This document shows positions 23,345-63,596 of a stretch of 64,000 bases of DNA, one piece after another. Position 1 is the stretch's first letter; each line of letters opens with the position of its first letter. The stretch lies in contig CAMCTJ010000007.1 in the NCBI GenBank assembly GCA_945878405.1, positions 74,779 through 138,778 on the forward strand, given 5' to 3'. Position numbers and translations under genes: made by a program. Source of the DNA: Bdellovibrio sp. ZAP7 (GTDB lineage Bacteria > Bdellovibrionota > FAC87 > UBA2466). Below the pieces are notes generated by a model, which saw only the letters and a program-made list of their open reading frames with translations, searched no databases and was not told where the DNA came from.

Positions 23345-23347
23345 TTT

Positions 23348-36535: not shown

Positions 36536-36653
36536 CACAAAGAAACGACTCTAATCAGAGCCCCTAACCCTATAAAACCTTAAGGGATTTGTCTAGGGGT
36601 CCTTTCGTAATCAACCGCTTAGAATTTGGAGAAAATAAGCCGAAAAGAGGCTT

Positions 36654-40256: not shown

Positions 40257-40799
40257 ATGCGCCTGATGGTTCTAGTCGCCCTTTTTGGAGTCTTCCTGTC
40301 TCAAAGTTTTGCAGTGACCTTTCATGAGCCGGTGAGCAAAATCAGTTTTACTTATGACGAAAATCTGTGGGAGGTCGTTCCTACCAAGGCGAATGAAAAA
40401 GAAACACTCGTGAATCTTCAAAGAAAAGTTGCCGACAAAGACGGCGACACGACTTATTTTTCTCGAATCAGTATTGTAAAAGAAGACACAACCCAAGTGA
40501 AAAAAGTTAAATCCAGCAAACTGCCAAAACTCCAAGCTTACCAAATTCATGCAGTCGAATTTTTAAGAAGCCAGCGTTTCGATATTCTTTCTTCTGAAAT
40601 GAAGAAAGTTGAGGGAATTACCGCAGGTGCTTTTGAGATTTTAGCGAATCAAAGAGATTTCGGACTATCATTTCAACAGCTGGGCTTTTTAGATGGAGAT
40701 ACGGCTTACCTAATGACGGCTACGGTCCGAACCAAGAAGCTTGGTGAATACAAAGTTGAGCTGGAAAAAATGTTTCAATCGGTTCGGCTTGCTCCGTAA
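40257..40799 (+). CDS. Secreted hypothetical protein
   Basis: 180 aa. Signal peptide MRLMVLVALFGVFLSQSFA. Its 3' end overlaps a convergent gene. Confidence 0.35.
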   Translation: MRLMVLVALFGVFLSQSFAVTFHEPVSKISFTYDENLWEVVPTKANEKETLVNLQRKVADKDGDTTYFSRISIVKEDTTQVKKVKSSKLPKLQAYQIHAVEFLRSQRFDILSSEMKKVEGITAGAFEILANQRDFGLSFQQLGFLDGDTAYLMTATVRTKKLGEYKVELEKMFQSVRLAP

Positions 40800-42014: not shown

Positions 42015-42024
42015 GTTAGAATAA

Positions 42025-48052: not shown

Positions 48053-48084
48053 AAAACAGACTTTATCCTACACTTAGAACTTCG

Positions 48085-48200
48085 ATGAAAAAACTCATAA
48101 TTCAAATACCCTGTTGGAATGAGGCGGAGACGGTTAGTGAGACCATTTTAGCGCTCCCCACCAGGGTAGAGGGTTTTGATTCAGTTGAGGTCTTAGTCAT
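48085..48200 (+). pseudogene. Remnant of a GT2 polyprenol-phosphate glycosyltransferase (N-terminal ~38 codons only)
   Basis: 'MKKLIIQIPCWNEAETVSETILALPTRVEGFDSVEVLVI' aligns with 'LKLIIQIPCFNEEKSLPLALAALPREVPGFETVEWLVVDDGS' of the intact GT2 at 60795-61736. Homology is lost after about 38 codons. Confidence 0.5.
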
Positions 48201-48205
48201 TATTT

Positions 48206-49174
48206 TTAAAACGACTCGGGCTTTAGCGCTGTCTTATTTCCGATATGCAATAAAGCCAAAACTCCTCCCCAAATTCGCCCCAACAAGAGCTGGCCTTGAA
48301 GAGCAAGCTTGAATTTACCAGGGCCGCGACAAGGTCTAAAGGCCATCCAGATTAAAATCGGGTTTTTTAAAATAGCGTAAACATTCGGCCAAATAACTTT
48401 GTGAAAAATGGAGTTTTTCCCTGATAAGTAGAGTTCCATTTCAGCGTCAGAACGCCCCTGCCACCAGGCTCTTCTTCTAAAGTAGCCTTGTGTTAATCTA
48501 TCAGTGCTAATCTGATGAAAACCTTTTATTGCGGGGTCATAAAAAAACCTAGCTCCCAGAGCTTCTAGTTTAAGTAGAGTCAGAGTTTCATCATTACTTC
48601 TCAAGTTGCCCGTTTGTCGGTTAATACGTTCGTCAAAGCCACCGATTTTTCTTAGTAAATGAGCTGGGAGAACCAAATTCGCAGAACAAAGTGCCTTAGC
48701 TTGCACAGGAATAAAATCAGGTCCTAACTGAATAGAGCTGAGATAGTTTTCAAGAAAAGGGCCATACCAACGGGGAAGAGGACTGTGAAAGTTTAGTTGT
48801 ACTTTTCCGCCCAAACAATCCGTTGACGTATCGAGAGTTAAATATCTTTCAAAAATTCGTTCTAGCCATTGGGGATGAGGTAACGTGTCATCATCAAGAA
48901 AGGCGATCAAACTACCTGCAGCCGCTTTAAACCCTCTGTTTCTCGAAAAATTTGAGCCCACTCTCAATTCTTTAAGCATTCTCAGGTTCGGCAATCGGCC
49001 TTTCCATTTTTCCAAAACATCTTGAGTGTTATCGGAGGAAGCATTGTTGACTATGATAGCCTCCCAAAACTGAGAGGGTAAACTTTGAGAGGCTAGCTCC
49101 ATTAAAAGTCTTTCCAGTTGGTTTTGTCGATCCCTCGTGGGAACGACTACTGAAATGAAACGATCGGAAATCAC
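48206..49174 (-). CDS. Glycosyltransferase family 2
   Basis: 322 aa. 'ISVVVPTRDRQNQLERLL', 'AFLDDDTLPHPQWL' (DxD). Confidence 0.7.
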   Translation of the reverse strand: MISDRFISVVVPTRDRQNQLERLLMELASQSLPSQFWEAIIVNNASSDNTQDVLEKWKGRLPNLRMLKELRVGSNFSRNRGFKAAAGSLIAFLDDDTLPHPQWLERIFERYLTLDTSTDCLGGKVQLNFHSPLPRWYGPFLENYLSSIQLGPDFIPVQAKALCSANLVLPAHLLRKIGGFDERINRQTGNLRSNDETLTLLKLEALGARFFYDPAIKGFHQISTDRLTQGYFRRRAWWQGRSDAEMELYLSGKNSIFHKVIWPNVYAILKNPILIWMAFRPCRGPGKFKLALQGQLLLGRIWGGVLALLHIGNKTALKPESF

Positions 49175-50310
49175 ACCATCTTCCCCTTGGTTTGGAGTGA
49201 AGACTTTAAGAGCTCAAACAGCCGATTTCCCAATTGCCCCCATTCGTAACTAGCAAGTTCTTTGGAGTCGGGGTGGCTCCATTTATCTTGGTCCATTAAT
49301 CGATTTCTAAAAAGCTCGAGCGGGGCGATATGAAGTCCCTTTAGATTCTGGTTAAATCCCCGAACTCCAAAGGGAGTAGTGAGAACAGCGAGCCCATTTC
49401 CCAAACATTCTATGAGCTTTACATTACTTCCGGAACCCGAACAAACGGGGTTCAGCGCCACGTCACTTTCCTTAAAAAACGGGAATAAATGATTCTGAAC
49501 ACCGCAGGAAATGATGTTTTCCGGAAGAGACTCTGATAATTGAACATTTCCAACAACGAGTAATGACCATCGATGTTTTATTTCTGGATGAACAAAAAGA
49601 TGGGCGAGGGCTTGCAACCCCCTTTGATTGTGAATTGAGTCGCTAGCAACATACAACGCAATACGGTGGTTTTCAGCAATGCCCCATGCTTTTTTAAACT
49701 TTGGGGTGCTCTCTCTCGAATTGAGATGTTCTGTTGAGGTGTTGTGAAATCCATTGGGGAGGCTCTGTATCAATTTTCCGGGCCTTAGTTTTTCAAAAAT
49801 AAGTTTATCTTCTTCTGAAACACAAACGACTAAATCTGCTTCTTTAATTGCTCTTTGTTCATTTCTTTTTAAAAGTGCAACTGCCCGAGGTGAAAAACCG
49901 TCGTGATACATGGCTTCGTGGTTATGTGCTGAGAGCACTTTGACTTTACCTGTGACACGCTTTGCAATTTGCCAGAGAAAGGGAGACTCAGAAATGACGA
50001 TATCAAAAGTTTCTTTTAAAGGGCGTGGAAGCGGCAGAAAAGTATTGAGACTGCTGGTAAGTGAATAAGAGGGGAAACCCAAACGTGAACTCAGGCCATC
50101 TAACCATTGTATTTGATTTTGTGACTCATAATGGCTACAGCGAGGAACAAGCTCTTGGGATTCAAGAGGTGAGAGCCTGGGTGAGATAAAAGACCAAACG
50201 GTGACTTGAGCCCCCTGATGGGCCAATTGCTCTGCCAAACTACGAATTCGGGTCACCGCTCCATTGAAATTATTGATAAGACGATGGTGAGTGAGAACCA
50301 GAACCTTCAT
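49171..50310 (-). CDS. Glycosyltransferase family 1 (GT4-type)
   Basis: 379 aa. 'MKVLVLTHHRLINNFNGAVTRIRSLAEQL' and C-terminal GT-B donor region. Confidence 0.65.
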   Translation of the reverse strand: MKVLVLTHHRLINNFNGAVTRIRSLAEQLAHQGAQVTVWSFISPRLSPLESQELVPRCSHYESQNQIQWLDGLSSRLGFPSYSLTSSLNTFLPLPRPLKETFDIVISESPFLWQIAKRVTGKVKVLSAHNHEAMYHDGFSPRAVALLKRNEQRAIKEADLVVCVSEEDKLIFEKLRPGKLIQSLPNGFHNTSTEHLNSRESTPKFKKAWGIAENHRIALYVASDSIHNQRGLQALAHLFVHPEIKHRWSLLVVGNVQLSESLPENIISCGVQNHLFPFFKESDVALNPVCSGSGSNVKLIECLGNGLAVLTTPFGVRGFNQNLKGLHIAPLELFRNRLMDQDKWSHPDSKELASYEWGQLGNRLFELLKSSLQTKGKMV

Positions 50311-50620: not shown

Positions 50621-53600
50621 GTGAAACGCTTCCTTCCATTTCATGCTGTCCTTTTATTCTTCGCGGTTTGCTTTGCTTCTTTTGCAGAAGAAAAAGGTCG
50701 GCTGAGTGCGAGTGATTTGGCGCCTGGTGCATCGGATGGTTTCGTCTTTAGTAATTCCGCAACTCCAGATACTCAGTGCGATGAGGGCAGTGGGGGTGAC
50801 TGCTGCGATGGAACTCTTCAAGAAACGTTTGCCGGGGTAACGAAATTCACAACAAGTTACTGCAAAGGCCGATATGCCGGAAAAGCAAGCTCCACTCGTT
50901 ACGGAATTCGGTTTGATACGTTTCACGCTTTTCGAAGTATCCTCAACGAAAATCAGTTAGTACTTGTGAATTCGAATGCTGGATGCACGAGCGGCGACTG
51001 CTGCCCCACCGGCGGAAGTAAGACCTATAACTGGCTCCTAGTAAGAGCGAGACCTTTTGATAATTACAGCTCGCCGATGGATATGTCGCTGGATACGACT
51101 TACGTTGGGGGAACCATCACCTATGACCATTCGCAAACTGTAAAGTGGTCCGGATCTTCAAAATTTAGTTTAAATGCCCTAGATGCTGAAACGAAGACTA
51201 ACTCCTCTGCTTATGGAGCCCGGCTTTTTGGAACTTCTACCTGCAGCGCGGGAGAATTTAAAGCAAGCGCAGTCACAGATTTTACTGCCGCCAATAGGCC
51301 TCTTGGAAATTATGGGTACTGGCTCTTTGGTAAGAACGTAGCTTTCTACCGACAGGTAAGTGCAGATCCTGTCATTGCCGTTGCTTTTCCAAGGCCAGCG
51401 CAGAGTCTGAGTTCTTCTGGAGTAATGGCTAGTAAGAACAAACAAGTTTTTACTGGAAATTATACCGGCTTCACGACGAGGGGAGTTCAGGTTCAAAGAA
51501 ATGTCATGCTGATTCCTGATGTCGCGGGAACAACTTTTACGATTTCGGAAGTAGCAGATCCCTCCAATCCCTTCTCAGTCAGCACTCTGGGGACTTTAGC
51601 TTGCACGAATTTAGATGAGCCGAGCCAAGGTTTCTGCCGAGGCACCCTGACCCTGACTGCAGTTCCTGGATTTTCAGGAAAAGCCACTTGCATGATGGCT
51701 TACGATATCGGTAATCGGGATCTTGTTTTTTGTAGCGCGCAGAATCCCTCCGCTGATAGCAATCACCAACGAGCGCTCGTCACCATTGCGGCAGTTTCAT
51801 CGCACAAGAGCGTTCTTGCGATGACTGCGTCGCCAGTACACTTAGATGCCAATACCTCCAGTGGGCAAATGTGTGCAACCGTGGAAAATATGACGTCGCG
51901 AGCAGTCGACACATTAACGCTTACTGGAAACTTAAGTGGTGACTTCTCGGCGGTTTCTCTCTCAGGTTCTGTCACAGCGCCGTTCAGTGGCCTTACTGGT
52001 TCAGTGTCAGCTTGTGGCACTTCTTTGCCAGCTTTTTCAAAATGTAAATTGTGTTCGAATGTTACTTTAACGACTCAAAAAGTAAGTGCCCACGCTTTAA
52101 CCCTGACTTTTGGAGATACACCGAGTTCGACAAAAAGCATGTCAGACACAGCGGTTGCGACTCGTGGGGTTTCGAACCTTCAATATGAAGTGGGGAAAGT
52201 AACCCAGAACAAGACTCCCTCGGTTAAAGCCGTCTTTGCCAATGGCACTACCCAAAACATTGATGCAATTAAGGAAAAGCTACAGTGTTCAGGAGTTTGT
52301 ACTTCAGCCACTGGAACCCGATCGCTTGCCTATACCTTGGAAGGCCTTGAGAGCGCTCCCGCAGTGGGCGATGTGCTCGTAAGCACTGAAGAAGAGCTTT
52401 GTTACAACGAAGAAGACGACGACAACGACGGAACCACCGACTGCCAAGATAACGACTGCGATTCCGAAAGAGCAGATATCAGTCACACCGATATTCTATG
52501 TAATTATAATAGCGAGCGAGATTGTGCAGACTCTTTTGATAATGATCGAGATGGGAATACCGATTGTGATGATGGAGATTGTGCCCTTGCATGTAATGTT
52601 TGGGAAACCGCTTGTAACAATAGTCTCGACGATGATTCTGACGGAAACACAGATTGTGCCGATTCAGATTGCAACGGACAAGTAAATGCTGACTTTAGAT
52701 ACTGTGGTCTCGAGACTCACTCCTATGGTGGGTGTGTGCTCGATGGAGTTGACGATGACAGCGACGGTTATACCGATTGCGCCGATCCGGATTGTTACGG
52801 CGGTTATGTTGGTTGGGGACCCTATGGAGGAACTTGTGACTCTGGAACTGAAACTAATTGCAGCGATGGATACGATTTCGACGGCGATGGTTTAACTGAC
52901 GCCAATGATCCAGATTGTGTGGTCTGCCTTGATTCTGACGGCGATACGTTTGGTGACGGTTGCTCTGCTGGCTCCGATTGCGATGATAACTTCAGCGACG
53001 CTTCCAACAATTGCTCCGACAACGTGGTTTTAGATTTGCGTTTCGATACAGATACGAGCGATTCCTCGAACTATCATCACGCGGTTGGAGCTAATGGAAG
53101 CCCCGCTATTTCCACGAGCAACGCGAAGTTTGGTGGAGGGAGTGCAAACTTTAATGGTAACGGCGACAGAATCGATATTTCCTCAAGCACAGATTTTGAT
53201 CTGGAAGACGGGGACTACACTATTGAGTTCTGGACTTTTGTACGAAGCGTAGCAGGGTCAGATGCTGCTAGATTGTTTACTTTAGAAAATAACGATGAGG
53301 CGTGGGGAATAATTCTTGCCAACGATGGTAGCAACAGTCTTTACGTGAATCATTATGGAATTGGTGAGGGTTTTGAAGTCAGTGGCGCACTCAACGGGAA
53401 ATTGAACCAGTGGGTGCATCTGGCCTTGGTGAAGAACGGCACAACTAGAACTCTTTATATTGATGGGGTAGCTGGAGGCTCGACCAACTCAAGAGTGTTG
53501 CCGGCTAATGCTGCGCAATTATCAATTGGTGGCAGTACCATTTGGTATCCTTATACACAGTTTGACGGTCTTATCGACGAACTGAAAATCACCAAAGGCT

Positions 53601-56600
53601 ATGCACGCTACACCACAAACTTCACACCTCCCACTTGCGCATCGATGAGCGAATCCGATGCCGATAGCGATGGTATCTGTAATAGCGCGGATACTGAAAG
53701 CTGCAGTGATTCGATTGATAACAACGGTAATGGCCAGACGGATGAAGAATGTTCTTCTTGCAACAGTAGCGATTCCTCCTCGGCAATTTGTAACCAAACT
53801 GGCACTTGCTGGAATCAAAGCGGTTGTCAGTGTGGAGTCTATGATTCAGTTAGCTACGGGCAATCCTGTACGATGGGCGGTGGCGGATCAACCGAAAACT
53901 GTTCTGATTCATTAGATAATGATTCCGATGCTTCAACCGATTGCCAAGATGCGGATTGTGATGGGGTGTCAGGCGGTAGCGGTATCTGTCACAACAATTC
54001 TGAAACTTGTAGTGATAGCTTTGATAATAATGGCAATGGCCAGACAGATGAAAATTGTTATCCCTGCATGGACAACGACGGCGATGGATATGGTTATTAT
54101 TGTGCGATCGGTGAAGATTGCGACGATTGGGCTAATTGGATAAACCCCGGTGCTTCAGAAATCTGGAATGGGTACGATGACAACTGTAACGGCCAGGCCG
54201 ATGAAGGACTTGGCAATCCCTTTGACTGGGACGGAGATGGGTGGCTATCTTACATGGGAGATTGGTTTGATTGCAATGATGCCGATGGGTCCATAAACCC
54301 CGGTGCTTCCGAAACCTGCAGCGACTCAGTCGACAACAACTGCGATGGCCAGACAGATGAAAATTGTTATCCCTGCATGGACTACGACGGTGACGGGTAT
54401 GGTTACTACTGTGTTCCCGGCGAAGATTGTCAGTGGAATATGGGAGAGGGGAATTCCGCTATTCACCCCGGAGCTGCAGATGACCAAAGCGATGGTACCG
54501 ACAATGATTGCGACGGTCAGATCGATGAAGATTATACAGTTCCGTGCACAGATTCGGACACTGATGGCGTGTGCAGTGGATCTGACTGTGACGACAGCAA
54601 CGCAATCTTCAGCACAGATTGCAGCAGCAACGTGGTTTTAGATTTGCATTTTAATAGCGACTTCAGTGATTCTTCGGGTCACAATCACAATGGGACTCCA
54701 AATGGAAATGCGGAAATCAGCTCTGATGTTGCCAAGTTCGGGGGAGGCAGTGCGCATTTTGATGGAAGTTCTTGGTTAACAGTAACGGCGTCTTCAGCTC
54801 TCGCTGTGGGAACGGGTGATTTTACCTTGGAAGCCTGGGCTTATCCGACACAAGTTAATGACTTTAGCGATTTGGCTGCCGTACTAGATACACGGCCCTA
54901 TGGCGCGGGAACTGGCTTACTGATTTGGTTGGATTCTGCTTCTGGAAAATGGGTAGGGTATACCTCTACAAACGGAAATGAGGATCAACTTGTTATTAGT
55001 TCCCCTACAACAGCAACCCTCAATGCGTGGACTCATTTAGCATTGGTGCGTTCCGGAACAAGTCTTAGGTTCTTTGTAAATGGAGAACTTGCCGGAACCG
55101 AAACTTTAAATGCTAACTGGAATTTTACTCAGGACACTACGGCACCGGGTTTTGTGGGAACTGCAGCCGATGCCCCTGGATACTTCCGCAACTTCTATGG
55201 CTATATCGATTCAGTAAAAATCACCAAAGGCGCAGCGCTCTACACAACCACCTTCACGCCCGCTACTTGCGCATCGATGAGCGAATCTGATGTCGATAGC
55301 GATGGCATCTGTGATAGCGCGGATACTGAAAGCTGCAGTGATTCAATTGATAACGATGGCGATAGTCAGACAGATGAAGAATGTTCTTCTTGCAACAGTA
55401 GCGATTCCTCCTCGGCAATTTGTAACCAAACTGGCACTTGCTGGAATCAAAGCGGTTGTCAGTGTGGAGTCTTTGATTCAGTTAGCTACGGGCAATCCTG
55501 TACGATGGGCGGTGGCGGATCAACCGAAAACTGTTCTGATTCAGTAGATAATGATTCCGATGCTTCAACCGATTGCCAAGATGCGGATTGTGATGGGGTG
55601 TCAGGCGGTAGCGGTATCTGTCACTACAGTTCAGAAACGTGCAGTGATAGCTTTGATAATAATGGCAATGGTCAAACAGATGAGAACTGCAATTCTGACG
55701 TAAGCGGCGGCGATCCGTACTTTGATGATGTGAGAGTGCTTGTTCATGCGGACGAAAACATTACGAATCATGCAAACGGGGGAACGCCCACAGTAACTTT
55801 CGTTGGCGGAGCGAATTACTCGACCTCCGACAAGAAGTTTGGATCAGCTTCCGCGCAGTTCTCACCGCAGATAACCCAGTACTGCGATGGGTGGTGGGGT
55901 TGTTATGACCAGTTAGTAGTTCCCAATTATTTAAAGATAAACGACACCTCAAGAACGATTCCTGCGAATTACACTGCTGAGTTCTGGGTAAAACCCGATT
56001 CCGATTGGAGTGGCGCAGTCTCAAGAAGATTATATCAACGAGGCGTTAGCGATATGGGGATGTATGGTATCGATGTTTATTACAATAACAATCGAATCTA
56101 TTTTAGTTTTTACAATAGCAATTATTACTATGATGGGTCTGGTGAGGGGGGGTGCGATCAATCGGGTAGCACTTATGGAGATGTTGGTACTTTGAGTGCG
56201 AACACTTGGTACCACGTAGCGATTGTGAGAGAGGGTAGTGCGATCAGAATTTATTTCAACGGAAACCGAATTGGGACGGGCACACTAAGCGCTAATTCCT
56301 ACACGTATTGGGGCACAATTCCCTCATGTACTGCCACAGAAGCTATCACACTTAGCGATTGGGGAAATGTAAACGAAGGTTTCGGAGTATCTTTTGACTA
56401 CGGTGACAATATTTACGATAACGTCACCGCTAAGTTTGACGAAATCCGAATCAGCAACAGAGCTCGTTACTCAGATACAAGCTTTACTCTTCCCACTTCG
56501 CCGTATCCCAATACCAAGCAAGCGGTAGCTCCCGAAATCAGTATTTCGCCCTCGAGCTACACGTTAACAGCTGGCACAGCGATGACAGCGATTGTTCCAA

Positions 56601-59299
56601 GCCTCACCATGGGCACGATTGATTCTTGCGTTGTATCGCCTTCGCTCCCCGCAGGATTGTCGTTAAATAGTTCCACTTGCGGTATTTCTGGAACTCCGAC
56701 TTATGGTGGAGGCTCGCAGTCTTATACGATTACTCCTTCGAACTCGGTCGGTACTGGTAATAGTGTCACCGTATCATTGACCATTAACGGTGCGGATGCT
56801 GGCGGCAATTATTACACCGGTGGTTCATTGGCTAGTGGAGTTGTTAATAACGCCGCGGGGCTTTCTGTCGAGTTCAGTAATTCAAATGATTTCACATCAA
56901 ACTTCGCAATCACAACACCAGCTGACGGAACGGCAACTGTCACGAACGGACAACTAGAATTTAGAAACCCAAATCCCGACAGACTTCCTGGTTATCATTT
57001 CAAGAACCCCGTATCTGCTTCGGCTATCGAAATCAAATTTACTCATCCAAGCCTCTATCCAAATTGGCATTGCCCAACTATTGCATTCTCCAATGGACTG
57101 GGTACTTTCACTGTTGCTTATGATCCGAAATATTCGGATGGCGGTTGGTGCGATGCAAACTCAATCAAGACTTCATTTGGCAGCTTCCCCATGGGTCATT
57201 TAGCCGGTGGCCAAGCTCATATCATTAAGCTTGAGGTCAATACACAAACACAAACTGCTACCCTCACGATTGATGGAACCTCACAGACCTATACGAATGC
57301 GATGTTTGCACAAAAACTCACCAACTTTGAACATGTACCAAATTATTCGTGGTACTGCGGCAGTTACACTACTTACATTGATTATGTCAGAGCCTACGAT
57401 TATGGTTGCTACTCAAATGGCTCGGCTGACAGTAGTTTCAACGCAAACGGAACGGGTTTCTGCAGCGGCACTTACTACATCGGTGGAGTAGCCTACGCAG
57501 GATTAGATTCCAACGGAAATGGAACGTCTGGTGGATTGCTTTACTCAAGTGGTTCACTCTTTACCGGAATGTACTCGGATTGGAACTGCTACGTTAATGG
57601 CGCCAATACTGGTGGCGTCGTGAGTGGTACCGGCTGGTGTAGTGCGGATAGTGTTTATTACGTAAGCTACAGCGGAACGAGTCTTCCCTCCAGCGGCACT
57701 GGAAACTACATGGGCAACTATTACAGTAGCGGCACATTGGTAGGCACAACGGCTTCGATATCGATTATGAGTCAGCCGTCCGATCAAACGGCTTCAAGCG
57801 GCAGCGCTACTTTCAGTATTGGTGCAAACATCACGGCTCCCGCTTCACTGAGTTACCAATGGCAGAAACAAGAAAGCGGCACGGGAAGCTTTAGCGATAT
57901 CAGCGGGGCAACGAGTGATTCACTTGTGCTTTCAAATCTGACCTATTCTTCAGATAATGGAGATGTGTATCAAGTCGTGTTGAGCGGAACACAAGGGGCC
58001 TCGAGTATTACCAGTAGCTCTGCAACGTTGAGTGTTCCTGTTTACGCTCCCGATGTACCGACTTCTGTAAGTGGAGCCGCTGGCAATGCCGAAGTGGAAG
58101 TAACGTGGACTGCCCCTAGCAATAATGGTGGAAGCGCGATTACGGATTATGTGATTCAGATTTCATCTGATAGCGGAAGCTCTTGGACAACTTACAGTGA
58201 TAGCGCTTCTACTTCAACGAGTGCTTCAGTAACCGGATTAACCAATGGCACAAGCTATGTCTTCCGAGTTGCCGCAGTAAATATTGGAGGTACAGGAGAT
58301 TTCAGTCTTGCTTCGACTTCAGTCTCTCCGAGTGCCAATGCAGGGGATCCTTATTTCAGTGACGTAAGAGTACTTGTGAACGCGGACGAAAACATTACGA
58401 ATCATGCAAACGGGGGAACGCCCACAGTAACTTTCGTTGGCGGAGCGAATTACTCGACGTCCGACAAGAAGTTTGGATCAGCTTCTGCACAGCTCTCACC
58501 GCAGATAACCCAGTACTGCGATGGTTGGGGTTGTTATGACCAGTTAGTAGTTCCCAATTATTTAAAGATAAACGACACCTCAAGAACGATTCCTGCAAAT
58601 TACACTGCTGAGTTCTGGGTAAAACCCGATTCCGATTGGAGTGGCGAAACCTCAAGAATGTTATATCAAGGGGGCGTGTTTGATCCTGGAGTAAGCGGGC
58701 TTCAGCTTTATCATTACAACGGTCGTCTGTACCTCAGTCTGAATAGCTATAACTATGGCTATTATTCGGGTCAGGGCGACTGGAGTTGCAATCATTCTGG
58801 TTACAACTATGCGGATGTGGGTACTTTGAGCGCGAGTACTTGGCACCACATAGCGATTGTGAGAGAGGGCAATGCACTCAGACTTTATTTCAACGGAAAC
58901 CGAGTCGGTAATTCAACGATTAGCGCCAGCTTCGAATCTTATGATGGCTCTTCGCCTGCCGGTGGATGTACAGCTTCGGGCGCTATCTCTTTGAGTAGTT
59001 GGGGTGAAACAAAGGCGGTCTTCGGCGTGGAGTCGGACTACAGTGATTATGTTTTCAGCAACGTCACCGCTAAGTTTGACGAAATCCGAATCAGCAACAG
59101 AGCTCGTTACTCCAGCGCTACTTATACTGTTCCAACCGCAGCATTCCCAAAAAGTGCAGCGCCTGTCTCTTGCAATAGTGAGACTTATGCGGGAGATACT
59201 TGTAACCAGGTTGGAACCTGTTACAGCCCTACGGGCTGTTCGTGTGGCATTTACAGTACTATCTCCTATGGAGATACCTGCTCCAATCCCGGCCAGTAA
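50621..59299 (+). CDS. Giant secreted multidomain surface protein (2892 aa)
   Basis: Domains in order: signal peptide (MKRFLPFHAVLLFFAVCFASFA), TSP3-like Asp/Cys Ca-binding repeats, MopE-like Cys/Asp repeats, four concanavalin-A/LamG-like modules, a He_PIG-type Ig domain, an Ig-like domain, FN3, and a C-terminal Cys-rich knot. It is a single uninterrupted 8.7-kb ORF, and all large opposite-strand ORFs lie inside it. Domain motifs include 'DNDxDGxTDCxDxDC', 'INPGASExC.D.VDNNCDGQTDE', 'DFTIEAW...WHHVAIVREG..LRLYFNG', 'LPAGLSLNSSTCGISGTP' and the FN3 'VEVTWTAPSNNGGSAITDYVIQ'. Confidence 0.85.
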   Translation: MKRFLPFHAVLLFFAVCFASFAEEKGRLSASDLAPGASDGFVFSNSATPDTQCDEGSGGDCCDGTLQETFAGVTKFTTSYCKGRYAGKASSTRYGIRFDTFHAFRSILNENQLVLVNSNAGCTSGDCCPTGGSKTYNWLLVRARPFDNYSSPMDMSLDTTYVGGTITYDHSQTVKWSGSSKFSLNALDAETKTNSSAYGARLFGTSTCSAGEFKASAVTDFTAANRPLGNYGYWLFGKNVAFYRQVSADPVIAVAFPRPAQSLSSSGVMASKNKQVFTGNYTGFTTRGVQVQRNVMLIPDVAGTTFTISEVADPSNPFSVSTLGTLACTNLDEPSQGFCRGTLTLTAVPGFSGKATCMMAYDIGNRDLVFCSAQNPSADSNHQRALVTIAAVSSHKSVLAMTASPVHLDANTSSGQMCATVENMTSRAVDTLTLTGNLSGDFSAVSLSGSVTAPFSGLTGSVSACGTSLPAFSKCKLCSNVTLTTQKVSAHALTLTFGDTPSSTKSMSDTAVATRGVSNLQYEVGKVTQNKTPSVKAVFANGTTQNIDAIKEKLQCSGVCTSATGTRSLAYTLEGLESAPAVGDVLVSTEEELCYNEEDDDNDGTTDCQDNDCDSERADISHTDILCNYNSERDCADSFDNDRDGNTDCDDGDCALACNVWETACNNSLDDDSDGNTDCADSDCNGQVNADFRYCGLETHSYGGCVLDGVDDDSDGYTDCADPDCYGGYVGWGPYGGTCDSGTETNCSDGYDFDGDGLTDANDPDCVVCLDSDGDTFGDGCSAGSDCDDNFSDASNNCSDNVVLDLRFDTDTSDSSNYHHAVGANGSPAISTSNAKFGGGSANFNGNGDRIDISSSTDFDLEDGDYTIEFWTFVRSVAGSDAARLFTLENNDEAWGIILANDGSNSLYVNHYGIGEGFEVSGALNGKLNQWVHLALVKNGTTRTLYIDGVAGGSTNSRVLPANAAQLSIGGSTIWYPYTQFDGLIDELKITKGYARYTTNFTPPTCASMSESDADSDGICNSADTESCSDSIDNNGNGQTDEECSSCNSSDSSSAICNQTGTCWNQSGCQCGVYDSVSYGQSCTMGGGGSTENCSDSLDNDSDASTDCQDADCDGVSGGSGICHNNSETCSDSFDNNGNGQTDENCYPCMDNDGDGYGYYCAIGEDCDDWANWINPGASEIWNGYDDNCNGQADEGLGNPFDWDGDGWLSYMGDWFDCNDADGSINPGASETCSDSVDNNCDGQTDENCYPCMDYDGDGYGYYCVPGEDCQWNMGEGNSAIHPGAADDQSDGTDNDCDGQIDEDYTVPCTDSDTDGVCSGSDCDDSNAIFSTDCSSNVVLDLHFNSDFSDSSGHNHNGTPNGNAEISSDVAKFGGGSAHFDGSSWLTVTASSALAVGTGDFTLEAWAYPTQVNDFSDLAAVLDTRPYGAGTGLLIWLDSASGKWVGYTSTNGNEDQLVISSPTTATLNAWTHLALVRSGTSLRFFVNGELAGTETLNANWNFTQDTTAPGFVGTAADAPGYFRNFYGYIDSVKITKGAALYTTTFTPATCASMSESDVDSDGICDSADTESCSDSIDNDGDSQTDEECSSCNSSDSSSAICNQTGTCWNQSGCQCGVFDSVSYGQSCTMGGGGSTENCSDSVDNDSDASTDCQDADCDGVSGGSGICHYSSETCSDSFDNNGNGQTDENCNSDVSGGDPYFDDVRVLVHADENITNHANGGTPTVTFVGGANYSTSDKKFGSASAQFSPQITQYCDGWWGCYDQLVVPNYLKINDTSRTIPANYTAEFWVKPDSDWSGAVSRRLYQRGVSDMGMYGIDVYYNNNRIYFSFYNSNYYYDGSGEGGCDQSGSTYGDVGTLSANTWYHVAIVREGSAIRIYFNGNRIGTGTLSANSYTYWGTIPSCTATEAITLSDWGNVNEGFGVSFDYGDNIYDNVTAKFDEIRISNRARYSDTSFTLPTSPYPNTKQAVAPEISISPSSYTLTAGTAMTAIVPSLTMGTIDSCVVSPSLPAGLSLNSSTCGISGTPTYGGGSQSYTITPSNSVGTGNSVTVSLTINGADAGGNYYTGGSLASGVVNNAAGLSVEFSNSNDFTSNFAITTPADGTATVTNGQLEFRNPNPDRLPGYHFKNPVSASAIEIKFTHPSLYPNWHCPTIAFSNGLGTFTVAYDPKYSDGGWCDANSIKTSFGSFPMGHLAGGQAHIIKLEVNTQTQTATLTIDGTSQTYTNAMFAQKLTNFEHVPNYSWYCGSYTTYIDYVRAYDYGCYSNGSADSSFNANGTGFCSGTYYIGGVAYAGLDSNGNGTSGGLLYSSGSLFTGMYSDWNCYVNGANTGGVVSGTGWCSADSVYYVSYSGTSLPSSGTGNYMGNYYSSGTLVGTTASISIMSQPSDQTASSGSATFSIGANITAPASLSYQWQKQESGTGSFSDISGATSDSLVLSNLTYSSDNGDVYQVVLSGTQGASSITSSSATLSVPVYAPDVPTSVSGAAGNAEVEVTWTAPSNNGGSAITDYVIQISSDSGSSWTTYSDSASTSTSASVTGLTNGTSYVFRVAAVNIGGTGDFSLASTSVSPSANAGDPYFSDVRVLVNADENITNHANGGTPTVTFVGGANYSTSDKKFGSASAQLSPQITQYCDGWGCYDQLVVPNYLKINDTSRTIPANYTAEFWVKPDSDWSGETSRMLYQGGVFDPGVSGLQLYHYNGRLYLSLNSYNYGYYSGQGDWSCNHSGYNYADVGTLSASTWHHIAIVREGNALRLYFNGNRVGNSTISASFESYDGSSPAGGCTASGAISLSSWGETKAVFGVESDYSDYVFSNVTAKFDEIRISNRARYSSATYTVPTAAFPKSAAPVSCNSETYAGDTCNQVGTCYSPTGCSCGIYSTISYGDTCSNPGQ
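53581..54061 (+). repeat. Intragenic direct repeat A, copy 1 (~480 bp; second copy at 55211-55690, ~95% identical with >100-bp exact runs)
   Basis: Both copies encode 'TCASMSESD.DSDGIC.SADTESCSDSIDN.G..QTDEECSSCNSSDSSSAICNQTGTCWNQSGCQCGV.DSVSYGQSCTMGGGGSTENCSDS.DNDSDASTDCQDADCDGVSGGSGICH..SETCSDSFDNNGNGQTDENC'. Confidence 0.85.
55211..55690 (+). repeat. Intragenic direct repeat A, copy 2
   Basis: See copy 1. The two copies are about 1.63 kb apart. Confidence 0.85.
55701..56480 (+). repeat. Intragenic direct repeat B, copy 1 (~780 bp LamG-like module; second copy at 58341-59115)
   Basis: The first ~300 bp and last ~60 bp are near-identical between copies: 'GDPYF.DVRVLV.ADENITNHANGGTPTVTFVGGANYSTSDKKFGSASAQ.SPQITQYCDGW' and '..NVTAKFDEIRISNRARYS'. 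The middle is diverged but homologous. A 3-nt indel distinguishes WWG from WG. Confidence 0.8.
58341..59115 (+). repeat. Intragenic direct repeat B, copy 2
   Basis: See copy 1. The two copies are about 2.64 kb apart. Confidence 0.8.
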
Positions 59300-59317: not shown

Positions 59318-60805
59318 TCAGTGTGTCCGCGTCCACAAACAAAGATCCTGAGCAAACCCTTCCTTGAGGTAATTGCGTTCCACAGTGCTCAGTTTTGTAA
59401 AAAAGAAGTCATCAATTGCAACGTAGAGGATGTTTTCTTCCTCAAGGCGATTCTTTTCAAACAAGCGACTCTCCTGTGCTCTACTGCCAGACACAGGAAA
59501 CCCGGGGAGAACCTGATCCACTTCATCCATGCTTCGGGGAGACCGCAGCCATTGCGCTTGGGAGTCTTCGTTGAACACATAAGCAGGGCATCGACTAAAC
59601 CAAACGTAAAAGACAGGATCGGTTCTCCTAAGCTTGTATAAGGCTGTGCTCAAAACTTCAATTTGTTCTCTTCTCTTTTGGGTTTCGTTTCTCATTTCTA
59701 AGGGCAGTGCCAAAGCGGTATTGAGGAGTGCTACCGCTAAAAGCCCCCCCAGGACGACGGGTTCAAATTTTCCCCAGGGAATCTCAAGTAGTATCTGAAA
59801 AACAAAAACCACCATCAGGGGGAGAATCAGCAACAGAGCATATTCGTGAATGGGGCTCAGGAGAAACAATCCACAGCTGAGAGCTGCAATTAACAATAAG
59901 TATCTCAGAGGTGTTCGCGTTTTTTTATTGAGGATTGCCGAGACGATACTCCCCACGAAGAGGGCCAGAAACAACAACAAAAGAACAGGGTCGCTCTTCC
60001 AGAGCTTAAAAAACAAGTCGGCAACGACTTCCGTTTTTTCAACCACTCGTTTTGAGATGAGGTTGAGGTTCATCAAGAACATATGATCAATCGCAGCGTA
60101 AAGGGCTCCTTGAATAGCCAGCACAAGCCCGATAATACCCAAAGAGATTATCTCTCCCCAAACCAGTGAAAACCGTCTTTTGATTGGTACCTTAAATCCT
60201 AAAGCCACTTGATCAGCTATTAGGAATCCTAAATTTAAAGGCAAAAACTTAGGGTGAAACCCAAGCGCAAGCCCCAAACACATTCCGGCGAGCAGTCTTT
60301 TTTCCCGAGATAGAAGAAATAGAAAAAGGACACATAAGAAACCAACCGTGATATCCGGGCGTGTCTGAAATGCAGTTCCTTGAACTATCCTGAGACTCAG
60401 AAAGAGGGCCCCGGCCACAGTCCCCTTGGCTATCTTTCGAGAGCCCTGAGTTAACGTCGAAACTGTGATGCCTACCATCATGGCAGTTACTCCTGCCATC
60501 AGAAGGGGAAACAAACGTAAATAAGTCAGGGTTTCAGCAGACTCAACCGCTCCGGGCTTTATCCAGAGCAACAAAGCATTCAGCCACGCAAAGACAGGTC
60601 CGTGGTGTTCAAAAAAGTCTTTGAAAATAATTTTGCCTCTAAAAACATTCCAAGCAATATGCGTGTGCTGGAGGTCGTCCTGGCCAAAAGAATAGGCAAA
60701 GGCTCTCGCTCCCAAGGCATATAAGTGGTACCCGAACACCAAGACAGATCCGAGGATCAAAAGTACTCCCCACCACTCAACCGTTTTTTTCTTTTTAGAA
60801 TCCAT
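59318..60805 (-). CDS. Polytopic membrane glycosyltransferase of the PMT/ArnT (GT39/GT83-like) family (candidate)
   Basis: ORF 59318-60868. Likely start 'MDSKKKK'. About 12 TM helices. The first loop 'YHLYALGARAFAYSFGQDDLQH' resembles the 'LRLYGLG..DE' loop of GT39/83 enzymes. Overlaps the upstream GT2 by 11 nt. Confidence 0.5.
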   Translation of the reverse strand: MDSKKKKTVEWWGVLLILGSVLVFGYHLYALGARAFAYSFGQDDLQHTHIAWNVFRGKIIFKDFFEHHGPVFAWLNALLLWIKPGAVESAETLTYLRLFPLLMAGVTAMMVGITVSTLTQGSRKIAKGTVAGALFLSLRIVQGTAFQTRPDITVGFLCVLFLFLLSREKRLLAGMCLGLALGFHPKFLPLNLGFLIADQVALGFKVPIKRRFSLVWGEIISLGIIGLVLAIQGALYAAIDHMFLMNLNLISKRVVEKTEVVADLFFKLWKSDPVLLLLFLALFVGSIVSAILNKKTRTPLRYLLLIAALSCGLFLLSPIHEYALLLILPLMVVFVFQILLEIPWGKFEPVVLGGLLAVALLNTALALPLEMRNETQKRREQIEVLSTALYKLRRTDPVFYVWFSRCPAYVFNEDSQAQWLRSPRSMDEVDQVLPGFPVSGSRAQESRLFEKNRLEEENILYVAIDDFFFTKLSTVERNYLKEGFAQDLCLWTRTH

Positions 60806-61736
60806 GAGAGGAAAGTCGATAACGAATGTCTTCTGCGAGTTTTCTATTCGCTGCCAGGACTTCAGCAATCAGTGCTAACAATAAAGTGCCAAACCCAAAG
60901 AGTAATAACACGGCAGCTAAGATCAAACTCTGAATATGGCCTGCATTTTCGTCTCCGCTTTGGAGGTAGTAGTACAAAAAGCGCAATCCAAGCACCGTTC
61001 CTAGTACTAAAAAAACGCTCGCAATCGAGCTGAGAAACTTAAACGGTCGGTAGATAAGAAAGATGCGAAAAAGGGTGATGATACTTTGTCTGATGTAGTT
61101 GGGAATGCTTTTAACCAACCGGGAGGGCCGTAACTCACCATTGGTTTGAATAGGCACTGAGGCAATTGCCATGTTCAACTGACCCGCTTGAATGATTGTT
61201 TCTAGAGTATAAGTATAATCATTGTAAACCATGAGGTGACTCGCCATGGTTTTACTAAAAGCCCGAAATCCACTGGGGGCATCTGGAATGTCTGTGCCGC
61301 TCACAACGCGAACCACCCAACTCCCCAGCCTTTGAAGTTTTTTCTTCAGAAACGAGAAGTGGGCGATGTTATCAATGGGTCGAGCCCCCACGACTAAGTC
61401 CGCTTTTCGTTTAATAATTGGTTCTGTTAGCTGAGGGATATAAGAAGCATCATACTGATTATCAGCATCCGTATTTAAAATAACATCCGCGCCTTCTCTT
61501 AAGCAGGCTGAGATGCCCGTCATAAAAGCTCGAGCAAGTCCCTGGTTGCGAATATGGCGTACGACATGATCTACGCCATGCGCTTTAGCAACCGCCGAAG
61601 TACCGTCTGTGCTTCCATCGTCAACTACCAACCACTCAACCGTCTCAAATCCTGGGACCTCTCGCGGAAGTGCAGCCAAAGCTAAGGGCAGACTTTTTTC
61701 TTCATTAAAACAAGGTATTTGAATAATGAGTTTCAA
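60795..61736 (-). CDS. GT2 polyprenol-phosphate sugar synthase (DPM1/ArnC-like) with C-terminal TM helices
   Basis: 'KLIIQIPCFNEEKS', 'VVDDGSTDGT', 'DADNQYD'. Two C-terminal TM helices. A probable TTG start at 61736 avoids the head-to-head overlap of the ATG at 61802 with the methyltransferase gene. Confidence 0.65.
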   Translation of the reverse strand: MKLIIQIPCFNEEKSLPLALAALPREVPGFETVEWLVVDDGSTDGTSAVAKAHGVDHVVRHIRNQGLARAFMTGISACLREGADVILNTDADNQYDASYIPQLTEPIIKRKADLVVGARPIDNIAHFSFLKKKLQRLGSWVVRVVSGTDIPDAPSGFRAFSKTMASHLMVYNDYTYTLETIIQAGQLNMAIASVPIQTNGELRPSRLVKSIPNYIRQSIITLFRIFLIYRPFKFLSSIASVFLVLGTVLGLRFLYYYLQSGDENAGHIQSLILAAVLLLFGFGTLLLALIAEVLAANRKLAEDIRYRLSSHGF

Positions 61737-61766
61737 TGTAAAATAGTTTAGGTCAAAAGAAGAAAT

Positions 61767-62414
61767 ATGAAAATAAAATTGTCGCGCGGCGCCCAGCAAC
61801 AAGGAGTGGTTTTTGGAAATGCCTATCCAAAGTACACTTCAAAAAATCCCCTTGTGAAATGGCTCATGAAGAACTTCGAATCTCATATCGAGGATCTCTT
61901 AAAACAAATTTCTCCTGAGACGATTCATGAAGTCGGCTGCGGGGAAGGGTTTTGGGTTCTTCATTGGAGAAAAAAGGGATTTAAGATCAGAGGCTCGGAT
62001 TTCTCTTCGCTCGTTATCGATATTGCAAAAAAAAATGCTGAGCAAATGGGAGCAGATCCAAACCTGTTCTCTGTTCGCTCTATTGAAGAACTCAATACCA
62101 CAGAGGATAGCGCTGAGTGTATCTTATGCTTAGAAGTGTTAGAGCACTTAGAAAAGCCCCAATTCGCTCTTGAAAAATTAAAGGCCCTTGAAGCTCGGCA
62201 CTACGTTTTCAGTGTGCCTCAAGAGCCGGTGTGGCGAATATTAAATGTTCTTCGAGGCAAGTACCTTACGAGCTTTGGAAATACCCCTGGACATCTCCAA
62301 CACTGGTCTCGCGGTCAATTTGTTAAGTTTATTTCTGAGCATTTCAGAGTAGAAAAAACGGTGGGGCCGTTTCCCTGGACTGTTGTCTTGTGTTCGCCAA
62401 AGTCACAAACCTAA
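61767..62414 (+). CDS. Class I SAM-dependent methyltransferase
   Basis: 215 aa. 'IHEVGCGEGFWVLH' (motif I), 'ILCLEVLEHLEKP' (motif III-like). Confidence 0.6.
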   Translation: MKIKLSRGAQQQGVVFGNAYPKYTSKNPLVKWLMKNFESHIEDLLKQISPETIHEVGCGEGFWVLHWRKKGFKIRGSDFSSLVIDIAKKNAEQMGADPNLFSVRSIEELNTTEDSAECILCLEVLEHLEKPQFALEKLKALEARHYVFSVPQEPVWRILNVLRGKYLTSFGNTPGHLQHWSRGQFVKFISEHFRVEKTVGPFPWTVVLCSPKSQT

Positions 62415-62534
62415 CAGCTATTCGGTGAGAATACGGCTTCTGCCAGGCACCTTCAGGCACCTTCTGAGGGGGTCTAATCCTTGCACCTTTAACCTCCTGT
62501 AACAGGAACCGAAGGCTTGTATTCTGGTGGTGTA

Positions 62535-63596
62535 ATGCACTTAAAGTTCTCCAAAAACAGGGTTTATGTAACTCTCGGAGGCCTTCTTTTATCTTTTGGT
62601 TCCGCAGCCACTTTTGCCTTTGAAAAAGACGACTCCAAGAATATTTCCTCACTCAGTGACCTGATCTCTTTTACTGAACTAACAAAAGATTTAAACCGAC
62701 TCTCCCAATATCAAAAAGTGTCGTTCCAAATTCGAGGACTCGATCAAAAACTGATTTTAGTCGCCCAGCCCCAGTTGCCGCTGAGCCCTCAAGTAAAGAC
62801 TAAATCGAAACAGGCTCTGCTACCTGAGCTCAGCACGGATCCGACGAGAATAAATCCGGTTGATCTGGGAGCGTTTGGATTTGCAGCTACAGCTGCGCCC
62901 AAGGAAGCTCAAAGTTCTGGTTTGTTGCCCATTCCACAAGCCCGTGTGGTTTCTCCGCTGGGGGAACAAGACTCAAATAGTCGAGCTGCTCTGGATGCCC
63001 CTATAAAAACTCAGGAACAAGTCAGTAACCCCGATGTTATCACTGGGCTCACGCCTCAGAACACCCGCTTTGGTAAAGACCGATACGATACAAGTCTCTT
63101 TCCCATTAACCCAGGCTCTGGAAGCAACTTGAGTAATTCAGTGGGGGTTGAGACAAGTAATGGGCAGGCGAACAACTCGCTTCAAGCGGGTCTTCCTTTG
63201 AACCCAGCGCCAGAGGATGAAGAGCAAAAGAAAAACAAAGAACAAGAGGCCAGAGAAAACTTTCAAAAAACCATGAAAGAGTTTGCCGAGAGAACAGAGG
63301 AGAAAGAAGCTTTCCAATTAGTGGATTATTACGATCTTAAAAATGTTCTCGCTAAACACGAATCCATTCTTCCTTCCTTTGAGAACGATGAATTTGACGA
63401 TCGGTTCATTCAAAATGCCCAAACTATTTTTGAGCGCTTTTCCGATAAAGATAATGCAGACGATAAAAAGCCCTTTGAGAGATTTCTGAAACGGATGCAG
63501 CCGTCGGAAGTCATCTTTCGCTCTCAAGACCTAAGAAAGAGCGCATTCCCCAAAGCACAAACAGGGCAAACTCACCGGCAACGCACATCAGAGTAA
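62535..63596 (+). CDS. Secreted hypothetical protein (low complexity, Pro/Ser/Gln-rich N-half, acidic/Lys-rich C-half)
   Basis: ORF 62517-63596. The Met at 62535 gives signal peptide 'MHLKFSKNRVYVTLGGLLLSFGSAATFA'. Confidence 0.35.
   Translation: MHLKFSKNRVYVTLGGLLLSFGSAATFAFEKDDSKNISSLSDLISFTELTKDLNRLSQYQKVSFQIRGLDQKLILVAQPQLPLSPQVKTKSKQALLPELSTDPTRINPVDLGAFGFAATAAPKEAQSSGLLPIPQARVVSPLGEQDSNSRAALDAPIKTQEQVSNPDVITGLTPQNTRFGKDRYDTSLFPINPGSGSNLSNSVGVETSNGQANNSLQAGLPLNPAPEDEEQKKNKEQEARENFQKTMKEFAERTEEKEAFQLVDYYDLKNVLAKHESILPSFENDEFDDRFIQNAQTIFERFSDKDNADDKKPFERFLKRMQPSEVIFRSQDLRKSAFPKAQTGQTHRQRTSE

Follow-up and report, generated by a model that had tools for sequence, protein, structure and literature searches.

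The addition of sugars in the periplasm changes surface antigenicity, phage receptors and resistance to antimicrobial peptides. Which molecule is modified in this way by a small group of genes in a 64,000-nucleotide (nt) stretch of DNA (contig CAMCTJ010000007.1, positions 74,779 through 138,778; the window in what follows)? The core of the group is a gene for a family 2 glycosyltransferase (GT2) that overlaps a gene for a polytopic membrane protein; a methyltransferase gene and a gene for a giant secreted protein flank the pair (Table 1). A sequence-only reading had proposed that the pair O-glycosylates the giant protein, possibly with a methylated sugar, and had named modification of lipid A or the core of lipopolysaccharide (LPS), unrelated to the giant protein, as the alternative. 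Our analysis indicates that the GT2 very probably makes a polyprenyl-phosphate sugar, which a membrane enzyme of the GT-C fold transfers in the periplasm. For the module as a whole we favor, at about even confidence, a periplasmic ("extracytoplasmic") glycosylation system of the Gtr/Arn type with an envelope glycan as acceptor and possibly a methylated sugar.

The GT2 and Its Membrane Partner

Open reading frame (ORF) listing and translation recovered the GT2, the membrane protein, the methyltransferase and the giant protein where the sequence-only reading had placed them. Each has conserved homologs (E from 1e-46 to <1e-200), and the four are therefore real genes rather than chance ORFs.

The GT2 matches the Pfam family Glycos_transf_2 (PF00535; E = 3.9e-23), carries the DXD motif as DAD, aligned with the motif of dolichol-phosphate mannose (Dol-P-Man) synthase and of ArnC, and has two C-terminal hydrophobic transmembrane (TM) helices (approximately residues 233 through 251 and 272 through 290). 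It thus combines the GT-A domain, DXD motif and C-terminal TM helices of synthases of the DPM1/GtrB/ArnC type, which bears out the architecture proposed earlier. Alignments to Dol-P-Man synthase and ArnC begin at its first residue. Matches in the Protein Data Bank (PDB) include the Dol-P-Man synthase of P. furiosus (5mlz; E = 1.3e-10) and ArnC (9bhc; E = 3.8e-7), the latter aligned over GT2 residues 2 through 294, TM part included. The best NCBIfam matches are below threshold: AglJ (E = 1.2e-25; 90 bits against a cutoff of 325), PpgS (1.3e-17; 64 against 370) and ArnC (1e-11; 44 against 529), with PgfS at 34 bits against 500; none is an equivalog-level match to a characterized enzyme from which the sugar specificity could be read. 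Homologs of the GT2 number more than 8,000, and the best 120 include proteins 65 to 70% identical in Thiobacillus, Hydrogenophilales, Methylococcales, Ottowia, Burkholderiales, Desulfobulbus and Trueperaceae; one listed homolog is annotated "DPM/DPG synthase family". No phage-borne GT2 homolog was found, and a match on a Phyllobacterium plasmid came without annotation.

The membrane protein has approximately 11 TM helices, counted from the helices of its AlphaFold2 model and the positive-inside rule; the earlier count of 12 is thereby corrected, and the polytopic GT-C character of the protein stands. The N terminus is inside and the C terminus outside, and a periplasmic C-terminal domain of approximately 100 residues (about 392 through 495) ends the chain. 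The model used was computed from an alignment of 102 sequences and superseded a six-sequence run with a predicted local distance difference test score (pLDDT) of 65.9. With high confidence it has a polytopic GT-C fold, matching structures of Pmt4, ArnT, ALG and OST enzymes; Pmt4 is the top structural match, and ArnT is the best full-length match by TM-score. The fold does not tell the acceptor, because enzymes that act on proteins (Pmt, OST) and those that act on lipids or glycans (ArnT, ALG, Aft, PIG-M) score similarly. Every strong structural match has a GT-C fold, which rules out an unrelated transporter family.

At the level of sequence, the earlier label of a "GT39/83-like" transferase does not hold as direct membership. 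Glycos_transf_2 was found in the GT2 as expected; the membrane protein (herein the GT-C) matches neither PMT (PF02366) nor PMT_2 (PF13231) at E ≤ 0.01, has no MIR domain and returned no PMT_4TMC match. Its sole Pfam match is GT87, at E = 1.4e-3 and below the gathering score, and NCBIfam gave none; a sequence search of the PDB yielded a borderline match to PIG-M, and a deep profile gave nothing significant. A word-indexed homology search found five relatives among 5.8 billion proteins, and their alignment seeded an exhaustive hidden Markov model (HMM) search that returned 1,341 relatives (239 at E ≤ 1e-10), mostly of approximately 500 residues and aligned over their full length. Among 75 relatives at 15 to 30% identity, 54 match PMT_2 (best E = 7.6e-14), 12 PMT and 3 GT87, all at E ≤ 0.01. 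Because the relatives (20 to 30% identity) match PMT_2 and the window protein does not, the homology is transitive only, and we place the window GT-C, as a divergent branch, with the PMT_2/ArnT-like members of the GT-C clan. With more than 1,300 relatives and a window member that reaches the cutoff of no Pfam family, it would, once characterized, probably become the founder of a new CAZy family.

In the GT-C, the conserved polar residues are almost all periplasmic. Nearly invariant in the 102-sequence alignment are D43, H47, H49, W52, D63, F64, H68, R97, R149-P150-D151, G174, K186, P329 and F411; D43, H47, H49, W52, D63, H68, R97, R149-P150-D151 and K186 of these lie in periplasmic loops or at the ends of helices. 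D43 has a conservation of at least 90% and is followed by D44 in the window protein and by Glu in most relatives; a D[DE]xQH-type motif precedes the RPD motif by approximately 100 residues in 51 of the 60 family members listed. D43-D44 thus supply the acidic residues that GT-C enzymes carry in the first extracytoplasmic loop after TM1, a loop that is periplasmic by the positive-inside rule. The DE loop motif that the sequence-only reading had suggested looking for is accordingly present, as D-D in the window protein, and the lipid-carrier logic of that reading is upheld by the type of the GT2, the GT-C fold and this periplasmic D-D/E motif.

The GT2 stop overlaps the GT-C ATG by 11 nt (ATGGATTCTAA), confirming the overlap seen at first reading. 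An overlap of the same length, 11 nt, is seen between the genes called in each of the three related contigs (a 96%-identical contig, L005 and L007), and this conserved stop/start overlap suggests that the GT2 and GT-C are translationally coupled. Synthase and GT-C genes are genetically linked in three-component systems, as they are here.

A Methyltransferase and a Donor Cassette That Spans Phyla

The methyltransferase gene starts 30 nt from the GT2 start in divergent orientation. As proposed from the sequence, its product is a divergent class-I enzyme dependent on S-adenosylmethionine (SAM); it matches five Pfam Methyltransf_* families at E = 2.6e-11 to 2.2e-9 and has no TM segment and no signal peptide. 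A methyltransferase with the same Pfam profile holds this position beside the GT2 in the 96%-identical contig, and that of L005 is 59% identical. Homologs number in the thousands; those listed are approximately 50% identical and include proteins from Leclercia, Rahnella, Buttiauxella, Massilia and Desulfosalsimonas. The association with the GT2 extends much further than the close relatives: the window enzyme is 48 to 52% identical, over its full length, to the methyltransferase adjoining the GT2 ortholog in Ottowia, Desulfobulbus and Rahnella (211 residues and 48 to 50% identity in the first two). The GT2-methyltransferase cassette is thus conserved from Enterobacteriaceae to Desulfobacterota, at 61 to 70% identity for the GT2 and 48 to 52% for the methyltransferase.

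We sampled the surroundings of GT2 orthologs at five loci: L091 (Ottowia), L092 (Desulfobulbus), L093 (Trueperaceae) and the metagenomic L094 and L095. All but L093 (four of five; GT2 66 to 69% identical) are O-antigen clusters of the ABC-transporter type, with a Wzt that has the carbohydrate-binding Wzt_C domain (and Wzm where the locus reaches it), WbdD-like (terminator) methyltransferases, giant multidomain GT4 polymerases and, in two of the four, gmd/rmd-type genes. Each of the four clusters encodes a large polytopic membrane protein (619 to 826 residues, no Pfam match), the GT2, the class-I methyltransferase and an LPG_synthase_TM-like, flippase-like protein. The families of the four large membrane proteins resemble neither one another nor that of the window GT-C, and three of the proteins have DE, DDE or GQDQG just after TM1, as in GT-C enzymes; the window has no homolog of any of them. 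The cluster around the GT2 ortholog of L093 is one for a pyruvylated polysaccharide and includes a pyruvyl transferase and GT4 genes.

Outside O-antigen loci, Rahnella has a stand-alone operon of GT2, methyltransferase, flippase-like and GT-C genes (L096:8984-13291), in which the GT2 and the methyltransferase are 61% and 51% identical to those of the window and the flippase-like protein, present in all of L091, L092, L094, L095 and L096, is 39% identical to that of Ottowia. The Rahnella GT-C has 590 residues and weak matches to DUF2142 and PMT. GT-C enzymes with DUF2142 decorate the cell-wall polysaccharides of streptococci and lactococci, and some of the work on the corresponding loci mentions DUF2142 proteins. 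No DNA match to the Rahnella cassette was found in 5,426 E. coli genomes. A related arrangement occurs on the Sulfitobacter plasmid pTHAF37_b (L097:9001-14603), in the order GT2, hypothetical protein of 565 residues, glycosyltransferase, methyltransferase, hypothetical protein of 301 residues and PAP2. The GT-C partners belong to different families; GT2 and methyltransferase thus make up a conserved donor module to which one GT-C enzyme or another is joined. The literature that we searched describes neither a methyltransferase partner of such a GT2, nor the four-gene cassette of GT2, methyltransferase, flippase-like protein and GT-C, nor this GT-C family.

A Proposed Order of Events

A pathway in four steps would accommodate these enzymes. 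The GT2 would move a monosaccharide from a nucleotide sugar onto undecaprenyl phosphate at the cytoplasmic face of the membrane. The soluble methyltransferase would then methylate the lipid-linked donor or a precursor while this faces the cytoplasm. SAM is cytoplasmic and absent from the periplasm, and the enzyme has neither signal peptide nor TM segment; it must therefore act before flipping, and on the simplest view its substrate is most likely the lipid-linked sugar or a precursor of it. The sugar would next be flipped, a step to which the LPG_synthase_TM-like protein may correspond in the orthologous cassettes, whereas the window encodes no flippase. Finally the GT-C, with its conserved Asp, His, Arg and Lys residues on the periplasmic side, would pass the sugar to an acceptor beyond the cytoplasmic membrane.

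The earlier suggestion of a methylated sugar gains from the methyltransferase being a conserved partner of the GT2; the donor sugar is its presumed substrate. Should the product of the GT2-methyltransferase pair prove to be a methylated lipid-linked sugar, the three-component paradigm would gain a tailoring step, and some of the methylated side-chain sugars in the O-antigens of many gram-negative bacteria could be accounted for. Orthologs in the culturable hosts Rahnella, Leclercia and Buttiauxella make the function of the pair directly testable.

Conservation of the Locus

We define the close clade by a GT-C identity of at least 51%; it has four members. The gene order of the window, read along the GT2 strand, is that of the 359-residue protein and the methyltransferase pointing away from the GT2, then GT2 and GT-C, then the giant ORF pointing toward them. 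The 96%-identical contig has the same order, and its convergent ORF with MopE-like repeats is truncated at 1,231 residues. L005 (GT-C 51% identical) has the methyltransferase, GT2 and GT-C, an 18-nt gap and a convergent ORF, the C-terminal 184 residues of which are MopE-like Asp/Cys repeats. In L007 (GT-C 79%) GT2 and GT-C are followed by two AAA_14/DUF4143 genes and the C terminus of an unrelated ORF ending in ...IGFRCVYSP. These tandem ATPase genes (L007:2516-5160, minus strand) stand at the position of the giant gene and are possibly an insertion that broke synteny.

The protein encoded beyond the methyltransferase in the window has a signal peptide or anchor at its start and a long, low-complexity middle rich in Pro, Gln, Ser and Asn; it has no Pfam or NCBIfam match. 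It is 56% identical, over its full length, to the product of the same-position gene in L005, and a 353-residue gene occupies the equivalent position in the 96%-identical contig. Its gene is the fourth to be conserved alongside the others in this clade and may belong to the module; the protein may be a further component or even a substrate.

More distant GT-C relatives, at approximately 25 to 36% identity, have varied surroundings. Those of L001 through L004 lie beside an exopolysaccharide (EPS)-type cluster (Wzy_C, Polysacc_synt_3, Bac_transf, GT4, WecG) and an unrelated helical protein of 1,916 residues. In L006, from a Bdellovibrionales metagenome-assembled genome (MAG) from Lake Baikal, the gene lies between recN-like and clp genes; this MAG holds the only genome-derived relative in the GTDB species set. 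In L008 through L010 (L008 32% identical) the GT-C gene is followed, in the same orientation, by genes for a 642-residue TPR protein and a 682-residue TMEM260_N-like protein (L008:1459-6964); TMEM260 is itself a GT-C and O-mannosylates proteins in animals, so that the latter would be a second GT-C. Upstream of the GT-C relative these loci have an RDD-family gene. No lipid A genes were found near the GT-C relatives in L001 through L010.

In all, 89 loci with a GT-C relative were fetched, approximately 70 of them non-redundant among L001 through L090. By phmmer, a gene related to the window GT2 is present in nine of the 89, and it stands directly upstream of the GT-C in the close clade only. The commonest of 100 immediate neighbors are VTT/DedA (7), class-I methyltransferases (5), B12-binding radical SAM proteins (4) and GT2 enzymes (2); DedA proteins have been implicated in the recycling of polyprenyl phosphate. 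No homolog of the giant protein was found in the 89 loci except in L005. ORFs of at least 1,000 residues occur in six other GT-C loci and are not homologous to the giant; the one in L001 is helical and coiled-coil-like.

The wider setting of the module is one of glycan synthesis. Six cytoplasmic glycosyltransferase genes flank it by Pfam: four divergent from the giant gene, and two further GT4 genes that flank a riboflavin operon. Beyond the methyltransferase, the 96%-identical contig continues with two genes of unknown type, a sigma-54 activator, DUF218, a 3-deoxy-D-manno-octulosonic acid (Kdo) transferase (Glycos_transf_N), a GT9 heptosyltransferase and argS; the Kdo transferase and the heptosyltransferase, approximately 4 to 7 kb further on, place the module in an envelope-glycan/LPS region.

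The Giant Protein

The giant protein has a Sec-type signal peptide and contains, by Pfam, four Laminin_G_3 domains, MopE-like Asp/Cys-rich repeats, FN3 and He_PIG. Its gene is convergent with that of the GT-C, as stated earlier, and the two stops are 18 rather than 19 nt apart; being convergent, the genes are not cotranscribed. The description "extraordinarily Ser/Thr-rich" is overstated. Ser and Thr make up 22.3% of the protein; among other window ORFs, nine ordinary ones range from 10.5 to 13.2% and three more reach as much as 19.1%. The enrichment is diffuse. The longest run of Ser/Thr is 5 residues, the richest 30-residue segment (60%) lies inside an FN3 domain, and an analysis of Ser/Thr tracts found no poly-Ser/Thr tract. 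The L005 fragment matches residues 1094 through 1270 of the giant at 42% identity; because the match is to internal repeats and not to the C terminus, orthology of the two ORFs is unproven.

The giant also contains near-identical internal duplications. A segment of approximately 150 residues, "CASMSESD...GNGQTDENC", is present twice, as is a second, "GDPYF.DVRVLV.ADENITNHANGGTPTVTFVGG...", and both are mirrored by near-identical antisense ORFs (Table 1). Recent intragenic duplication and assembly collapse are both possible origins of these repeats.

Comparison with Known Glycosylation Systems

The kind of system is known from the Gtr, Arn, Flm, Pgf, CsbB/YfhO and GT136 systems. The closest named ones are the Gtr O-antigen systems, made up of a GtrA flippase, GtrB (an undecaprenyl-phosphate glucose, Und-P-Glc, synthase) and a serotype-specific GT-C, and their GT136-type counterparts for ABC-transporter O-antigens; in Gtr systems GtrA and GtrB can be swapped, and specificity for the acceptor lies with the GT-C (PMC11127046). 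Like them, the window module pairs a GT2 synthase with a GT-C whose active site is periplasmic, its donor enzyme is conserved while the GT-C partner varies, and GT2 orthologs lie in O-antigen loci. Unlike them, the window has no GtrA, SMR or MATE flippase and no LPG_synthase_TM-like protein, has a conserved SAM-dependent methyltransferase as an extra component and lacks adjacent O-antigen export genes; moreover, its GT2 is closer in sequence to Dol-P-Man synthases, ArnC and AglJ, no GtrB structure being among its PDB matches at E ≤ 1e-3.

ArnC/ArnT (GT2 plus GT83), which modify lipid A with L-Ara4N, and FlmF1/FlmF2/FlmK of Francisella (PMC2233673) share the architecture of both enzymes, the end-to-end alignment of ArnC with the GT2, and a diderm host with LPS core genes nearby. 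They differ in that the window GT-C is approximately 10% identical to ArnT without a PMT_2 match, arnA, arnB, arnD, arnE and arnF are absent and a methyltransferase is present. The Ppm1/Pmt (GT39) systems that O-mannosylate proteins in actinobacteria, and the PMTs of eukaryotes, are set apart by the lack of a PMT or PMT_2 match and of the MIR domain in the window GT-C, and the streptococcal PgfS/PgfM1 and GtrB/PgtC2 systems by their YfhO-type GT-Cs (PgfM, PgtC2), which form another family, and by the absence of poly-Ser/Thr disordered tracts from the giant (PMC12041528, PMC11727336). The window GT-C also matches GT87 (PimE-type) and GT50 (PIG-M), below curated thresholds only; both are mannosyltransferases that depend on polyprenyl-P-mannose and modify phosphatidylinositol glycolipids, a class of lipid that this organism would not be expected to have.

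Which Acceptor?

An envelope glycan (LPS core, O-polysaccharide or another surface polysaccharide) would rank above the giant protein as acceptor because of the contexts of the donor-module orthologs and the local glycosyltransferase and LPS-core setting; our confidence in it is evenly divided. Modification of LPS unrelated to the giant, the alternative of the sequence-only reading, is accordingly at least as well supported as modification of the giant. Several observations weigh against an envelope-glycan acceptor, or against the module that we place around it. Wzm/Wzt, Wzx/Wzy and an O-antigen ligase were not found next to the GT2/GT-C pair in the window, and a profile built from flippase-like proteins of five orthologous cassettes gave no match among the six-frame ORFs of the window. 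No family dominates the 100 immediate neighbors in the 70 non-redundant loci of the wider GT-C family. Since the window GT-C belongs to a different family, acceptor specificity does not transfer from the O-antigen loci; the substrate of the methyltransferase is one that we infer; and an ORF with MopE-like repeats is convergent with the GT-C, across the same 18-nt gap, in the second lineage represented by L005.

This last arrangement, recurring where the GT-C is only 51% identical and accompanied by a convergent ORF in the 96%-identical contig too, is among the grounds for protein O-glycosylation, in which a GT-C of PMT or PgfM1/PgtC2 type would attach the sugar, possibly methylated, to Ser/Thr residues of the giant, or of some other secreted protein (the 359-residue one, for instance), during export or once it is complete. 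The D-D/E motif in loop 1 is that of PMTs, Pmt4 is the top structural match, and the giant is secreted with about twice the Ser/Thr content of typical window proteins. There is precedent in the pgf operon of S. mutans, in which the GT-A enzyme PgfS and the GT-Cs PgfM1/M2 are encoded with their adhesin substrates, and in GtrB/PgtC2, which glycosylate Ser/Thr-rich regions (PMC12041528). Yet the giant gene is convergent and separately transcribed, L007 (79%) has other genes at its place, the L005 match is to internal repeats of unproven orthology, and the giant has none of the poly-Ser/Thr or disordered tracts of PMT/Pgf-system substrates; it has no homolog in approximately 70 other GT-C family loci, the donor-module orthologs sit in polysaccharide loci and the window GT-C matches neither PMT nor PMT_2. 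The L005 ORF therefore speaks for the original proposal of the giant as target, and L007 synteny, the missing tracts and the want of a family-wide association speak against it; we consider protein O-glycosylation possible and rather doubtful. Were the giant the acceptor, PMT-like protein O-glycosylation would be extended to diderm bacteria, in which, to our knowledge, PMT/Pgf-type protein O-glycosylation is not known. A bolder version, which strikes us as quite improbable, is that the GT2-methyltransferase pair is an undescribed phylum-spanning cassette that O-methylates a sugar on its carrier before flipping and was here recruited, with a new GT-C family, to O-glycosylate the giant as a surface protein; if so, this would be the first case in a diderm bacterium of PMT-like protein O-glycosylation dependent on a lipid monophosphate.

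Glycosylation of the lipid A head group in the manner of ArnC/ArnT or FlmF/FlmK, with a sugar on the 1 or 4' position (or on Kdo) and an altered surface charge, appears unlikely to us. It accords with the full-length alignment of ArnC to the GT2, the resemblance of the GT-C to ArnT and the Kdo transferase (waaA) and heptosyltransferase genes a few kilobases beyond the methyltransferase in the near-identical contig. The nearest genome-derived GT-C relative is that of the Bdellovibrionales MAG, and Bdellovibrio lipid A carries mannose instead of phosphates. The precedent is Francisella, where the DPM-synthase-like FlmF1/FlmF2 together with FlmK place mannose and galactosamine on lipid A (PMC2233673). 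Against it, no ArnA, ArnB, ArnD, ArnE, ArnF or deacetylase is present among the window ORFs scanned with Pfam, the GT2 orthologs are in O-polysaccharide rather than lipid A loci, and lipid A genes were not seen near the GT-C relatives in the ten loci described above. We know of no precedent for a methylated sugar on lipid A, which we count as a further point against this acceptor. A quite different account would leave GT2 and GT-C adjacent but uncoupled, with the GT-C using another (diphosphate-linked) donor or the GT2 serving a GT-C encoded elsewhere. The nine of 89 wider GT-C loci with a GT2-related gene besides the window, its place directly upstream in the close clade alone, and the pairing of GT2 orthologs with other GT-C families point that way; the 11-nt overlap, conserved in four of four clade members down to 51% GT-C identity, argues for coupling and makes this account very improbable.

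Other Features of the Window

A scan of positions 59,000 through 62,700 for promoters and terminators gave nothing above the shuffled expectation. The remaining features bear on the organism rather than on the module (Table 1). FlgH (L-ring), FlgI (P-ring) and AsmA in the window identify the source organism as a flagellated diderm.

Table 1. Positions of the features discussed, in window coordinates
Feature	Coordinates	Strand	Remarks
GT2 polyprenyl-phosphate glycosyltransferase (DPM1/ArnC/AglJ type)	60795..61736	-	313 aa, TTG start
GT-C fold membrane glycosyltransferase	59318..60805	-	495 aa, ATG start
Soluble class-I SAM-dependent methyltransferase	61767..62414	+	Five Pfam Methyltransf_* families
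Secreted or membrane-anchored protein, low-complexity middle	62517..63596	+	359 aa; downstream of the methyltransferase, same strand
Giant secreted multidomain protein	50621..59299	+	2892 aa; Pfam domains, signal peptide; convergent neighbor of GT-C
Antisense ORFs mirroring the duplications of the giant	55761..56024; 58395..58655
Four cytoplasmic glycosyltransferase genes	46155..50310	-	GT4-like, DXD "Gly_transf_sug", GT2, GT4 (Pfam); divergent from giant gene
Two further GT4 genes	40710..43269
Fusion of VKOR and thioredoxin-fold domains	36654..38717	+	687 aa
tRNA-Met	36461..36536
Phage-type integrase	30470..31672
Flagellar cluster	16612..24250	+
Carotenoid cluster	6338..10941	+

The flagellar cluster encodes two basal-body rod proteins of FlgE/F/G type, FlgA, FlgH, FlgI, FlgN, FlgK and a flagellin-like protein. 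The carotenoid cluster comprises a lycopene cyclase, a polyprenyl synthetase and an 815-residue fusion of Amino_oxidase (phytoene desaturase) and SQS_PSY (phytoene/squalene synthase). The VKOR fusion joins a VKOR membrane domain to two thioredoxin-fold domains (AhpC/TSA, Redoxin), and its gene adjoins that of the tRNA-Met.

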